Assembly: GCA_016190945.1 (NCBI GenBank)
Contig: JACPPO010000097.1
Span: 258 to 64,257 of the forward strand
Length of the DNA stretch: 64,000 nt
Direction: 5' to 3'
DNA from: Acidobacteriota bacterium
GTDB lineage: Bacteria; Acidobacteriota; Vicinamibacteria; Vicinamibacterales; UBA2999
A program made the translations under genes and the position numbers. The notes under the pieces were generated by a model. It had not been told where the DNA came from. It did not search any database and was given only the letters and a program-made list of their open reading frames with translations. How positions within the stretch are numbered: position 1 is the stretch's first letter; the number at the start of each line of letters is the position of its first letter. Of this stretch, positions 5,393 through 32,702 are shown in pieces.

Positions 5393-5920
5393 ATGTCACT
5401 AATTCACCCCGGCGTTCGCATCGGTCACGTTCACCTGAAGGTCGCGGATCTCGATCGAGCGTTGCGGTTCTATCGCGATATCCTGGGGTTCGAACTGACG
5501 CAGCGGTACGGTCCGGGCGCCGCATTTCTTTCCGCGGGCGGCTATCACCATCACATCGGGCTGAATACGTGGGAGAGCCAGGGCGGTGCGCCGCCCGCGC
5601 CAGGCACTACCGGCCTCTATCACCTCGCCGTCCTGTACCCGACGCGAGCGGAACTGGCTGACGGGCTCCGCCGCGTGCTGAAGGCGGGCATTGGCCTCGA
5701 TGGCGCGGCCGATCACGGGGTCAGCGAGGCGCTCTATCTGCGCGACCCGGACAACAACGGGATCGAGCTGTATTGGGATCGACCCGCAGAGCAGTGGCCG
5801 CGCGCGGCCGACGGGCAGCTCGCGATGTTCACGCGCCGGTTGGACATCGACGGCCTGTTACTCGAACGAGACGCGGCGCCTCTCGGCCAGCCAGCGGGCT
5901 CTGGGCCGCGCGACCGCTGA
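5393..5920 (+). CDS. VOC (glyoxalase/bleomycin-resistance/extradiol dioxygenase) family protein
   Basis: N-terminal HVHLKVADLDRALRFYRDILGFEL and the later HLAVLYP/ALYLRDPDNNGIELY are typical VOC beta-alpha-beta-beta-beta modules. Confidence 0.75.
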   Translation: MSLIHPGVRIGHVHLKVADLDRALRFYRDILGFELTQRYGPGAAFLSAGGYHHHIGLNTWESQGGAPPAPGTTGLYHLAVLYPTRAELADGLRRVLKAGIGLDGAADHGVSEALYLRDPDNNGIELYWDRPAEQWPRAADGQLAMFTRRLDIDGLLLERDAAPLGQPAGSGPRDR

Positions 5921-5969
5921 TCGTGCCCCTTCGATTCCATTCAGGGTCATCCCGAGCTATTGTCGAGGG

Positions 5970-6863
5970 ATGAAAGCCGGCTTCGTGTCGTTCATCGGCC
6001 GCCCCAATGCCGGCAAGTCGACGCTGCTGAATCGCATCGTCGGGCACAAGCTGGCCATTGTCTCGGACAAGCCGCAAACAACCAGGACACGCATCGTCGG
6101 CGTGAAGAACTATTCCGAGGGACAAGTCGTGTTCGTCGACACACCCGGTGTGCACAAGCCGGCGCACCGAATGAACGTCCGGATGGTCGACGTGGCACTG
6201 GACGCCATGCGTGAGGTGGACGTGCTCACGCTCGTCGTCGACGCGTCGGTCGCCACAGGACCGGGCGACCGCCACCTGCTCACGCTGCTCAAGGACGTCA
6301 AGACCCCTGCCATCCTGGCGTTGAACAAAGTAGATGTAATTGCCAAGGCGAAGCTTCTGCCGATCCTCGACTGGTACCGCAACGCACACTCGTTTGTGGA
6401 GTTCGTGCCGATTTCGGCCGCCGACGGCACGAATGTCGACGTGCTCGAGAGGTTGTTTCTACAGTATCTGCCGGAAGGCGACCCCCTGTATCCGCCCGAC
6501 TACGTCACGGACCAGCCCGAGCGCTTCTTTGTTGCGGAGATCGTGCGCGAGCAGGTGCTGCGGCTCACGCATGACGAGCTGCCGTTCTCGACGGCGGTGG
6601 TCGTCGATCGGTTCGAGGAGCCTGATGCTGACATGGTCGTGAACCTCTATTGCACCATCCTGGTTGAGCGGGAGTCGCAGAAGCCGATCGTCATCGGCCG
6701 GGCCGGCGCGATGATCAAGAAGATTGGCACCGCCGCGCGCACGGAGCTCGAACGATTCTTTGGGGCGCGGGTGTACCTGGACCTGCACGTCAAGGTAAGG
6801 TCCGAATGGCGCGACGACGTGCGCGCTCTGGACGAGATGGGCCTTCAGGGTCGCGACCGCTGA
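5970..6863 (+). CDS. era: GTPase Era
   Basis: G1 GRPNAGKST, G3 DTPG, G4 NKVD and a C-terminal KH domain. ATG 5970 (MKAGFVSFIG) was chosen. The 5691 track start overlaps the VOC gene in another frame context. Confidence 0.95.
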   Translation: MKAGFVSFIGRPNAGKSTLLNRIVGHKLAIVSDKPQTTRTRIVGVKNYSEGQVVFVDTPGVHKPAHRMNVRMVDVALDAMREVDVLTLVVDASVATGPGDRHLLTLLKDVKTPAILALNKVDVIAKAKLLPILDWYRNAHSFVEFVPISAADGTNVDVLERLFLQYLPEGDPLYPPDYVTDQPERFFVAEIVREQVLRLTHDELPFSTAVVVDRFEEPDADMVVNLYCTILVERESQKPIVIGRAGAMIKKIGTAARTELERFFGARVYLDLHVKVRSEWRDDVRALDEMGLQGRDR

Positions 6864-6923
6864 CTTCACTGGTTCGAAGAGAAATTCCACGTACCCAGCC
6901 GCTGACCGGCGAGCGGGGTCGAG

Positions 6924-7262
6924 TCAGCGATTCGCCGGTAGCATGATCGCGAGCAGAGCCGCGAGGGCGGCGACCTGCCCAATCCAGAACAAAAACGACC
7001 ATCGCAGCCAGGCGACATGTCCCAGAGACATTTCCCGCCGGATCGCCGCAAAACCTTGATGCATCTCGAGCCGTAGGCCGGAGACTTCCTCAGCCAGCCG
7101 TCGCTCGAATCGTTCGGATGTCAGTTGATGATAGAGGCCGAACATCTCAACCAGCCCTTCCGCGGCTTCATCACCGAGCTTTCTACGAATCGAGGCAGGC
7201 ACCACAAGCGCTTCCATAAGATCCTCTGCTGTGGGCACCCGACCTTGCGACGACGATGCCAT
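6924..7262 (-). CDS. Small coiled-coil protein with C-terminal transmembrane anchor (DUF1640-like architecture), function unknown
   Basis: 112-aa ORF with a coiled-coil-like middle (ERFERRLAEEVSGLRLEMHQGFAAIRREM) and a hydrophobic tail (WSFLFWIGQVAALAALLAIML). No competing gene at this locus. Confidence 0.45.
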   Translation of the reverse strand: MASSSQGRVPTAEDLMEALVVPASIRRKLGDEAAEGLVEMFGLYHQLTSERFERRLAEEVSGLRLEMHQGFAAIRREMSLGHVAWLRWSFLFWIGQVAALAALLAIMLPANR

Positions 7263-7338
7263 CGTCGCAAAGAGCTGTCAATAGACCGATGCCGCGTGCT
7301 AGATTTAGCTGTTTGCCCGTGGCGGACGGACCTTCACC

Positions 7339-8712
7339 ATGGCGGCGCAGCGAAGAATCGATCTCGTCCTCGACTCGGTCAGGCGACTGCTGCGCATCGG
7401 TGCGACCGCCAACCTGTTGAACCTGCTGCAAAAGCAGCATCCCGCCGATCTCGCCCGGATTTTCAGCGACCTTCAGGACAAAGAGCGCGAGGCGACCTTC
7501 AGCCTGCTCGCCGAGCGGAACGGTCGGCTTGCGATGGAAGCGGTGTCCGAGCTCGGCCCGGAGGCGGGCGCGGCACTCCTGGGCACGCGCTCGGCGGAGG
7601 AGATCGCGAAGCTCGCCCAGGAGATTCCGTCCGACGACGCCGCGGCGCTGATCGATTACCTGCCAGAGGAGCTCTCGGCTGCGGTTCTCGACCTGATGCG
7701 CCCGAAAGAGTCCGGCGTCGTCGAGAACCTGCTCGAGTACGACGAGCAGACCGCCGGCCGCATCATGAACCCGCATGTCTTCGCACTCAATGAGGACATG
7801 ACGGTCGGCGAATCCATTACGGAGCTGCAGACCAACCGCGACGTCGAGATGGTCTTCTATCTCTACGTGGTGGACGAGCGTCGGCACCTCGTCGGAGTGA
7901 CGTCGCTGCGCCGGCTGCTGCTGGTCTCACCGGAGACGCCGCTGAAGCGGATCATGACGACGGACCTGATCACTGCGCGGGTCGACATGGACCAGGAGGA
8001 AGTCGCGCGGCAGGTGGCGTCGTATAACCTGCTGGCGATCCCCGTTGTCGACGAGGAGAACAAGCTGGTCGGCGTGATCACCGTCGATGACGTCATTGAC
8101 GTCATCAAGGATGAGGCGACGGAGGACATCTATCGACTGGCCGGTGTGGCGGGCGACGAACGCGCGTTCACGCCCGTGGGCGAATCACTGCGCAAGCGGC
8201 TGCCGTGGCTTGGAATTAACCTCGTCACCGCGTTCATGGCCGCCTCCGTCGTGGCGCTGTTCGAGGGCACGATCGAGCGGATCACGGCGCTGGCGGTCTT
8301 CATGCCGATCGTGGCCGGGATGGGCGGGAACGCTGCCACGCAGACGCTGACCGTCATCGTCCGCGGTATTGCCCTGGGCGAGCTGACCTGGAGCAATTCC
8401 CGCAAAGCGCTGCTGAAGGAAGCCATCGCCGGCATGGGAAACGGCGTTATCCTCGGCTTGGTCGCGGCAGCGGTTGTCTGGGCCACTCGCGGTAACCCGG
8501 TGCTGGGCCTGGTCCTGTGCGCCGCCATGATCATCAACATGTTCGTCGCCGCCACCGCCGGAACGCTCGTTCCGTTGGGTCTGAGGGCCGCGAACATCGA
8601 TCCGGCACTCGCCTCGTCGGTATTCATCACCACCCTGACCGACGTGTTCGGCTTCTTTTCATTTCTCGGTCTGGCGACGCTGCTCATGCGGTACCTTGTT
8701 CCCGTCACGTAG
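7339..8712 (+). CDS. mgtE: Magnesium transporter MgtE
   Basis: MgtE N-domain, two CBS domains (IMNPHVFALNEDMTV..., IPVVDEENKLVGVITVDDVIDV) and a C-terminal 5-TM MgtE channel domain (PIVAGMGGNAATQT). Confidence 0.93.
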   Translation: MAAQRRIDLVLDSVRRLLRIGATANLLNLLQKQHPADLARIFSDLQDKEREATFSLLAERNGRLAMEAVSELGPEAGAALLGTRSAEEIAKLAQEIPSDDAAALIDYLPEELSAAVLDLMRPKESGVVENLLEYDEQTAGRIMNPHVFALNEDMTVGESITELQTNRDVEMVFYLYVVDERRHLVGVTSLRRLLLVSPETPLKRIMTTDLITARVDMDQEEVARQVASYNLLAIPVVDEENKLVGVITVDDVIDVIKDEATEDIYRLAGVAGDERAFTPVGESLRKRLPWLGINLVTAFMAASVVALFEGTIERITALAVFMPIVAGMGGNAATQTLTVIVRGIALGELTWSNSRKALLKEAIAGMGNGVILGLVAAAVVWATRGNPVLGLVLCAAMIINMFVAATAGTLVPLGLRAANIDPALASSVFITTLTDVFGFFSFLGLATLLMRYLVPVT

Positions 8713-30882: not shown

Positions 30883-31035
30883 CCTTGCACCTCGCACCTC
30901 GCACCGCCGCGCCTTTTGGCCCTTCCGTTCCGGTCCGATTGACGACCGGGCCCTCCGGTGGTACAAGTCGCCGTGACTAGCGGGATCCCCGCCGCGCACG
31001 CCTGCGCGGTGGAGTGCCGTCCGGGGGGTGCGCCC

Positions 31036-31581
31036 ATGACTGATCGTCTTCGTGGCGTGCGTTGTCTCGCCACCGCGTCTGTCTTGCTCGTCGCGCCGGC
31101 GCTTGCCGGAGCCCAGGAATCCAGGTCGTCGCAGCTTGCTACCGAGCTGGTGAAGATGCTCGACGCGATGAAACTCGACAGCATCGCGGCGAAAGCGGAA
31201 GGCGATCGGTATGTCGGCGCCCTGTACTTCCCAGGCAGCCAGCTCCTCGTCGTCCAAGCCCGATACAGCGTCCCGGAACGCATGGACGCGCAGCTGGCCG
31301 GGAAGAACTATCGAGACGTCTACATCGATCTAAACAGCGCCTCGATCAAGGATTCGAAGACCCTGGTCTCCGATCTCGGGGCCAACGGGCTCCAGGCCAG
31401 GCGCCGCGACGATCAGCCGTACGACACGGTGGACGTCGGCGGCAGGAGCTATGCGTTCGACGGTGACTGGGACAAAGCGAAGATATCCGAGCAGGAGTAC
31501 ACGAAGGCCTTCGAGGCGAGTGACGCGGAGTATACGCGTATGCTCGAAGTCCTCGTCGCTCATCTCAAGAAGACCTCGTAG
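31036..31581 (+). CDS. Secreted hypothetical protein downstream of mlaD
   Basis: ATG 31036 gives a signal peptide (RCLATASVLLVAPALAGAQE). Composition is coding-like and the gene is followed by a strong intrinsic terminator. I recognised no family. Confidence 0.5.
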   Translation: MTDRLRGVRCLATASVLLVAPALAGAQESRSSQLATELVKMLDAMKLDSIAAKAEGDRYVGALYFPGSQLLVVQARYSVPERMDAQLAGKNYRDVYIDLNSASIKDSKTLVSDLGANGLQARRRDDQPYDTVDVGGRSYAFDGDWDKAKISEQEYTKAFEASDAEYTRMLEVLVAHLKKTS

Positions 31582-31611
31582 CCGGCGCGTGCCGCCAATG
31601 GTGCGAGGCAG

Positions 31612-31642
31612 AAAAGGGCCGCCCCTCGGGGCGGCCCTTTTT
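31612..31642 (+). terminator. Rho-independent terminator
   Basis: AAAA-GGGCCGCCCC-tc-GGGGCGGCCC-TTTTT: a perfect 10-bp GC stem (31616-31625 / 31628-31637) followed by T5, 30 nt after the stop at 31581. Confidence 0.85.
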
Positions 31643-31644
31643 GT

Positions 31645-31969
31645 GTGTGCGCCAGGCAGGGCGCGCAGCGCCGTGGCTGGCGCTGTCAACCGATAGCGAA
31701 AGCGAGTCGGAAAGTGACTTGGAGGTGCAAGTCCGCCGGGGGCCGGCGCCTCGCGGATACCGTACTCAATGGCCGGGGGCCGTGGTGGCACGCGGGCGCG
31801 AGTCACATGCACGCGGCCCAACCCACCGCTGCGCTGCGGCAGGCGGGTCTCTTGAGCTTGCTGGAGGAGTACAGCGCCTTACGGGTGCTTCGTGAACCGC
31901 CGGATGCCGAACGGCACGTCCGGTGGTGTGGGAGGTGAGGATCAGCAATAATCCTCACCTACCCGCTAC
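31645..31969 (+). mobile_element. ORF-less group II intron-like ribozyme (bacterial class C type), ~325 nt
   Basis: 5' GUGUGCGCC at 31645 directly after a terminator, the known class C insertion context. DI-like stem GCGCCAG 31649-55 / CUGGCGC 31677-83. A short hairpin at 31873-31889 occupies the place where DIV/ORF would be. The domain V hairpin at 31894-31930 has a CGC triad, a 2-nt 3' bulge and a GAAC loop. The domain VI-like hairpin at 31930-31964 has a bulged A at 31961, 8 nt before ...CUAC 31969. There is no RT ORF. Confidence 0.7.
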
Positions 31970-31970
31970 A

Positions 31971-32702
31971 GTGACGGGACTCGTGACCCTGGTTCGCTCG
32001 ATCGTCACCTACGCCGTCGTGCTCGCCTACATTCTGGTGGCGGGGCCGACGGGGCTCCTGATCGCAGTCGGCTTCCGGTGGAAGTGGGGACTGTACGCGC
32101 TCGGGCACGCGGGCGTGCGGCTTGCCCTGACGCTGGCGGGCATCCGATACCGCGTCGTGGGTCGCGATCGCGTGCCCGCGACCACCGTGGTGTTCTGCTC
32201 GAACCACGCGAGCAACGTCGATCCCCCCGTCCTCTTCCAGGCGCTGCACCCGCAGCTCCACGTGCTCTACAAGGCCGAGCTCCACAGGTTTCCCATCATG
32301 GGCGCGGTATTCGACGTCGGCGGGTTCGTGCCGATCGATCGGGGCGACCGTGACAAGGCCATGGCGTCGATCACCAGGGGTGCGGAGTCGCTGCGCGCCG
32401 GCAACTCGTTTCTGATTTTTCCCGAAGGGACTCGCAGCCGGACCGGACACCTGCTGCCTTTCAAGAAGGGCGGTTTCATCATGGCCATCCAGGCGCAGGT
32501 GCCGATCGTCCCTGTCGCCGTGCAGGGTGGCCGCGCCGCCATGCGGAAGGGCAGCGCCCTCATTCGCCCCGTTCGGGTCAGCGTGCGCCTTGGAACCCCG
32601 ATCCCGACCGCCGGCCTGACGCTGGACGATCGGGACGCGCTGATTGAACGAGTCAGACGACAGGTCGAACTGTTGCTGGAAGAAGGGTCGCTCTGGGAAT
32701 AG
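31971..32702 (+). CDS. plsC: 1-acyl-sn-glycerol-3-phosphate acyltransferase
   Basis: HX4D motif (SNHASNVDPPVL), FPEGTRS and a PIVPV block. The start was moved to in-frame GTG 31971 (or 31983) because the track start at 31923 lies inside the intron-like domain V/VI hairpins. The start is uncertain. Confidence 0.85.
   Translation: MTGLVTLVRSIVTYAVVLAYILVAGPTGLLIAVGFRWKWGLYALGHAGVRLALTLAGIRYRVVGRDRVPATTVVFCSNHASNVDPPVLFQALHPQLHVLYKAELHRFPIMGAVFDVGGFVPIDRGDRDKAMASITRGAESLRAGNSFLIFPEGTRSRTGHLLPFKKGGFIMAIQAQVPIVPVAVQGGRAAMRKGSALIRPVRVSVRLGTPIPTAGLTLDDRDALIERVRRQVELLLEEGSLWE

Follow-up and report, generated by a model that had tools for sequence, protein, structure and literature searches.

The 323 nt from 31645 to 31967 (+) of the window, the 64-kb stretch of DNA that was analysed as a whole, are very probably the non-functional remains, here called the relic, of a class C (IIC) group II intron retroelement, and lie at the joint of two loci that are unlinked in relatives. 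The relic has kept both splice-site ends and still intact domains V and VI; deleted from it are intron nt ~101-1713, about 1.61 kb. Its ends are set at 31644/31645 and 31967/31968 by empty sites in related Acidobacteria (here and below, a slash in a sequence marks such a boundary). The features of the region, in order, are:

31036-31581 (+): hyp181, a 181-aa hypothetical protein, last gene of a UvrB-MlaE-MlaF-MlaD block (L152 gene call, 181 aa)
31616-31644 (+): intrinsic terminator hairpin GGGCCGCCC/GGGCGGCCC with the tail TTTTTGT, which is the class C target motif and closes the 5′ exon (fold, conservation)
31645-31744 (+): intron 5′ fragment, GUGUG and no more than the initial ~100 nt of domain I (91% identical to L076 nt 1-100)
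31742-31746 (+): deletion or recombination junction, intron nt ~100 joined to ~1714 (three-way comparison with L167, L164, L170 and L076)
31759-31881 (+): remnant of the gene for the intron-encoded protein (IEP, reverse transcriptase/maturase), its last 41 codons, ending ..LNGRGPWWHAGASHMHAAQPTAALRQAGLLSLLEEYSAL (tblastn of the L076 IEP)
31896-31929 (+): domain V, with CGC triad, GAAC loop and 2-nt bulge (Rfam RF00029, MFE fold)
31930-31967 (+): domain VI, with bulged A at 31961 and the intron 3′ end ..CUACCCGCU at 31967 (Rfam alignment end, relatives, empty-site homology)
31971-32702 (+): plsC, 1-acyl-sn-glycerol-3-phosphate acyltransferase, 243 aa (Pfam Acyltransferase, E = 6e-33)

The class C origin had been proposed in the initial annotation, and it is borne out by the covariance model for domains V and VI and by alignment to full-length relatives. 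RF00029, whose gathering score is 40, matches 31895-31967 with 46.9 bits (E = 4e-6 over the 64-kb window), the sole gathering-level Rfam match in the 64 kb. In the Rfam alignment as in the MFE fold, domain V is a 34-nt hairpin with a 4-bp upper helix, the CGC catalytic triad and a 2-nt bulge on the 3′ side, and the bulged branch A of domain VI is the seventh nucleotide from the intron 3′ end; the triad, the upper helix, the bulge and the bulged A at 31961 had been read correctly from the letters. The same goes for the suggestion of compensatory base-pair swaps in domain V. When the four positions that differ from the commonest IIC type were left free, the 52 matches in viral contigs comprised only the haplotypes TATA (28), TGCA (23) and GGCC (1), all of which keep Watson-Crick pairs, and the four differences are therefore compensatory. 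The exact domain V 30-mer is present at no fewer than 100 loci in genome contigs; among those listed, none matches the flanks of the window. A covariance match to domains V and VI is not, by itself, the mark of an intact intron. The initial annotation had looked to the Rfam group II models for confirmation, which came for domains V and VI and not for the remainder: the D1-D4 models gave no match in 31000-32600 even at E<=10, because that part of the intron is deleted. Divergence was considered as the cause of the missing match and dropped, since the internal deletion accounts for it.

The extent of the loss is given by L076, a contig of 1935 nt from a Longimicrobiales MAG, made up wholly of one intron and found by blastn of the element against the loci collected with the domain V pattern. 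The match is split in two: relic nt 1-100 correspond to L076 nt 1-100 and relic nt ~102-323 to L076 nt ~1714-1935, so that 31645-31744 represents intron nt 1-100 and 31745-31967 the last ~223 nt. The relic is thus collinear with parts of a full-length intron whose interior is gone, and GCC microhomology is possible at the junction (31742-31746). L076 encodes an IEP of 470 aa with RVT_1 and GIIM domains; tblastn of its residues 426-466 against 31759-31881 gives 75.6% identity over 41 codons (E = 1e-14), and the C-terminal motif encoded there is also found in many IIC IEPs. In L076 the Rfam models D1D4-3 and D1D4-1 match intron nt 136-310 and nt 344-426, regions that we take, from the O. iheyensis intron, to hold most of domain I including EBS1, domain II, J2/3 and domain III. 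The 5′ fragment stops short of the D1D4-3 region. Of domain I, with its EBS1, EBS3 and tertiary-contact motifs, the relic keeps nt 1-100 only; domains II and III and the J2/3 linker are missing together with the D1D4-1 region, and ~430 IEP codons have gone as well.

These comparisons overturn the earlier picture of a compact and complete ribozyme of ~325 nt, from which the interior turns out to have been removed. Offered as alternatives had been a miniaturised, trans-mobilised intron and a decaying one: the internal deletion upholds decay, and the deleted core and the IEP remnant within the element tell against miniaturisation. The stretch GAGUACAGCGCC-UUAC-GGGUGCU, formerly interpreted as J2/3 and a domain IV stub, consists of the last codons of the IEP gene, for 31759-31881 encodes the last 41 IEP residues. 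The remark that there is no reverse transcriptase ORF holds: beyond the 41 C-terminal codons, none was found in the element or elsewhere in the 64-kb window, which contains a single copy of the element and no further intron or reverse transcriptase sequence. Further copies of the element had been envisaged as well; the junction pattern GGAGGTGCAAGTCC-N20-50-GGCCGGGGGCCGTGGTGG has 0 matches in metagenome contigs, and there is hence no sign of a propagating mini-element.

A second scan, with a 31-mer from the 5′ end, retrieved 16 metagenome copies, each of them (16/16) directly behind a hairpin and T-run. Eight of them reach, or almost reach, from one intron end to the other over ~1.93 kb, and show the same split relative to the relic. 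The parent lineage is one of ~1.93-kb introns with a 470-aa reverse transcriptase/maturase that insert right behind terminator hairpins. Internal deletions are found, independently, in four members of the lineage (L108 2159-3460, L078 4848-5741, L139 4473-5044 and L175 549-1170, the last being one of the 16 metagenome copies); as these differ, loss of the interior with retention of the ends seems to be a recurrent route of decay. Another decayed IIC intron occupies nt 5409-7655 of the viral contig L025; its IEP is frameshifted, D1D4-3, D1D4-1 and domains V/VI are detectable, its domain V is identical to that of the window, and immediately before it stands the terminator of a 394-aa ORF, presumably a phage-type integrase as judged from sequence. 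Head-to-tail tandem class C introns ~1.9 kb apart are present in L028 (15-1980) and L122 (158-2077), a viral contig and a Gemmatimonas MAG contig.

Long ORFs across the relic are spurious products of high-GC sequence: 31645-31938 (+) of 97 aa, 31330-31821 (-) of 163 aa and 31766-31948 (-) of 60 aa. The first is open only because the old IEP frame continues into domain V. Pfam gave no match for this 97-aa ORF, as the IEP remnant lies past the GIIM domain.

Both boundaries are precisely placed. GTGTG begins at 31645, 2 nt past the T-run, where the initial annotation had put it; it conforms to the 5′ consensus GUGYG and is aligned with nt 1 of L076 and of the 16 metagenome copies. A 22-nt match to L025 (nt 6870-6891) had raised the idea that the 5′ end of the relic was an internal segment of domain I; it was dropped, given that L076 and the 16 copies align from nt 1. 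The 3′ boundary reads ..CTACCCGCT/ACAGTG, and empty-site homology resumes at ACAGTG. Introns in relatives end in CTACCCGAT or CTACCCGCT, and together with the empty sites and the end of the Rfam alignment they move the 3′ end from 31969, as formerly given, to 31967.

On the upstream side, the hairpin at 31616-31642 has 13 bp, is GC-rich and is followed by TTTTT (-31.6 kcal/mol, z = -5.45 relative to shuffles). It is kept, with compensatory changes, in L157 and L158, so that the intrinsic terminator noted directly before the element is well supported. The terminator belongs to hyp181, which shows 100% identity to HYX77_06200 of an Acidobacteria MAG at NCBI and whose synteny is kept in L157 and L158. 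Both relatives share the order UvrB-MlaE-MlaF-MlaD-hyp181-terminator and are homologous to the window up to 31644 (..TTTTTGT/) and no further. A simple consensus terminator scanner called no terminator at 31616-31644; we suspect that A/U pairs lengthen the stem at the expense of the T-tail.

On the downstream side, four relatives (L154, L155, L159 and L161) have the intron-free arrangement CarD-terminator-TTTGT/ACA-GTG(plsC), and in the two that align at the DNA level, L154 and L155, homology to the window starts at 31967/8. The longest plsC ORF, of 259 aa, does begin inside the element (31923), as had been noticed, and its first 16 codons are domain V/VI sequence; for annotation purposes this start is intron-derived. 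From homologues of 243 or 239 aa, and from the gene call in L152, which has 243 aa, the predicted start of plsC is GTG 31971 (possibly GTG 31983) and not 31923. In the intron-free relatives the plsC GTG lies only 3 nt past the T-tail of the CarD terminator (..CTCCCGGGCTTTGTTTGT ACA GTG; L154 2960-3003, L155 2950-2991), so that plsC seemingly lacks a promoter region of its own or else truly starts further downstream. In the window plsC is now preceded by the terminator of another locus and by a structured leader of 323 nt that is predicted to be unspliceable. P0005, a 255-aa plsC homologue, was considered as a second carrier of the relic and dropped, as it has the ordinary CarD-plsC arrangement. 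A distant homologue of 354 aa, P0001 (L156 1290-2486), shows an apparent internal tandem duplication of the acyltransferase region, and in L156 CarD is followed by a threefold tandem repeat of GCGATTCGTCGTAA.

The relic occupies, with nucleotide precision, a break in synteny. Its left flank (UvrB-MlaEFD-hyp181-terminator) and its right flank (plsC-...-Big_5) are not neighbours in any relative examined; CarD and plsC are adjacent in four, and in two hyp181 is followed by a different gene. In the closest relative with a long contig, a single contig of 3.69 Mb, the two flank loci lie 0.92 Mb apart on the same strand. Neither CarD, nor its neighbours, nor the 123-aa gene located after hyp181 in relatives was found in the 64-kb window. 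Both parental sites are class C targets, a terminator followed by TTTGT/A, and the flanks rejoined without the relic give TTTTTGT/ACAGTG, as in relatives. The two pieces of the relic also differ in their affinities. The best relatives of the 5′ piece are L167, L171 and L172 (93-94% identity), those of the 3′ piece L164 and L170, which form a subclade separate from L167/L171/L172 in both segments; diagnostic sites split 0 versus 3 in the 5′ piece and 4 versus 0 in the 3′ piece (Fisher p = 0.029, from only 7 sites). Flanks ~0.9 Mb apart and pieces from different subclades together suggest that the relic probably joins two intron copies at the breakpoint.

The most likely history, as far as comparison of the sequences allows, is one of recombination between two copies. 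Two intron copies would have resided behind two terminators, that of hyp181 and that of CarD; recombination between them would have joined the hyp181 and plsC loci, and the interior would have disappeared either with this illegitimate exchange or through a deletion afterwards. The mosaic signal could instead reflect recombination among introns before insertion. A history with a single intron is also conceivable: a rearrangement at TTTGTA microhomology joins the hyp181 terminator to plsC, one intron inserts and one internal deletion follows. The 6 nt TTTGTA are indeed found at the joint in both parental sites, internal deletions are common in the lineage, and, since IIC introns insert right past terminator tails, an insertion exactly at the joint would need no further explanation. 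Such a course of events nevertheless requires illegitimate recombination exactly within a 6-nt stretch, and it sits poorly with the assignment of the two pieces to different subclades and with their unequal identity to the best relative, 94% for the 5′ piece and at most 83-89% for the 3′ piece; we regard it as unlikely. The relic records, at nucleotide resolution, a rearrangement that joined loci ~0.9 Mb apart in a relative; if two copies did recombine, it also illustrates how class C introns of uncultured Acidobacteria can serve as substrates of recombination.

Left with only the start of domain I, and with no domain II, domain III, J2/3 or reverse transcriptase, the relic cannot form a catalytic core and, on these grounds, is not expected to splice or move. 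It is extremely improbable that the ~325-nt RNA is a miniaturised, ORF-less functional class C ribozyme that self-splices or is mobilised in trans in the manner of HYERs, ORF-less IIC ribozymes whose existence is documented in PMC12990946 (which cites Liu et al. 2024). In favour of such a ribozyme are the position behind a terminator and the integrity of the 5′ GUGUG, of domain V and of domain VI including the bulged A; the whole relic RNA also folds better than shuffles (z = -3.85). Its middle third, however, is an IEP coding remnant, the D1D4-3 and D1D4-1 regions are wholly absent, and HYER1, according to the same paper, measures 637 nt with D1 and D3 present. The metagenome contigs hold no match to the junction; relatives covering both ends (L076 and eight metagenome copies) are ~1.93 kb long, and the shorter L078, L108, L139 and L175 have differing, idiosyncratic deletions.

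Exaptation of the relic, its structured RNA (domain I stub, domains V and VI) serving as a regulatory 5′ leader or processing site of plsC, or the relic as an outward promoter, is very unlikely too. In its favour, plsC has no upstream region besides a terminator, outward promoters are known in IIC-attC introns (PMC3001079), and Toro et al. speculate about conserved intron remnants near transcribed regions (PMC4181065). Moreover, the relic is identical in three Logan contigs (including L152 and L153) from at least two sequencing runs, contigs that are 99.98-100% identical to the window. These identical copies represent one population, though, and carry no signal of selection. A scan for sigma-70-like promoters found none in 31300-32200, and the plsC genes of relatives also lie 3 nt behind a terminator with no intron, so the relic is not needed for that arrangement. 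Highly improbable as well is the proposal that the relic is excised with the aid of domain I-III RNA and maturase that full-length copies elsewhere in the genome would provide in trans, or acts as a structured leader controlling plsC; if excision in trans did occur, the relic would be a naturally split bacterial group II ribozyme, located before an essential lipid-synthesis gene.

The relic is a class C member by descent only, an ordinary decayed mobile element. Class C introns such as B.h.I1 and O.i.I1 insert after intrinsic terminators (Robart et al. 2007, as cited in PMC4424553). The relic shares with them the 5′ GUGUG, the CGC-triad domain V, the domain VI bulged A 7 nt from the 3′ end and the insertion directly past a hairpin and T-tail, and its parent lineage of ~1.93-kb introns has the En-less reverse transcriptase/maturase (RVT_1 and GIIM). 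Unlike them, it consists of nt 1-100 and the last ~223 nt only. Like HYERs, as far as PMC12990946 describes them, the relic is IIC-derived and has no protein-coding region. HYERs are presented there (from Liu et al. 2024) as having a 6-nt target-recognition site, and D1 and D3 contacts are described for HYER1; the relic, at 323 nt, has no Rfam D1-D4 match and is for one third dead IEP coding sequence. A compact ORF-less ribozyme of the HYER type would be expected to retain the ribozyme core and to occur in several copies, whereas here the core is deleted, the junction scan of metagenome contigs is empty and the window holds one copy.

Further parallels are the fragmented or internally deleted group II introns of bacteria. 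Sinorhizobium harbours the RmInt1 remnant FRE652 and an RmInt1 copy with a deletion of 1520-1844 (PMC4181065); 111 group II intron fragments are reported in Enterobacteriales, and rearrangements are acknowledged to arise by ectopic recombination among intron copies (PMC3522654). As in these cases, the relic is a decayed, immobile intergenic copy beside conserved genes. In contrast to the RmInt1 and Enterobacteriales fragments, it has lost the whole core and kept both splice-site ends, it lies exactly at a synteny breakpoint, and its host is an uncultured acidobacterium. Terminator-linked class C introns (PMC4424553) and fragmented or deleted bacterial group II introns (PMC4181065, PMC3522654) are already known; the interest of the relic lies not in a new ribozyme architecture but in a synteny breakpoint marked at nucleotide resolution.
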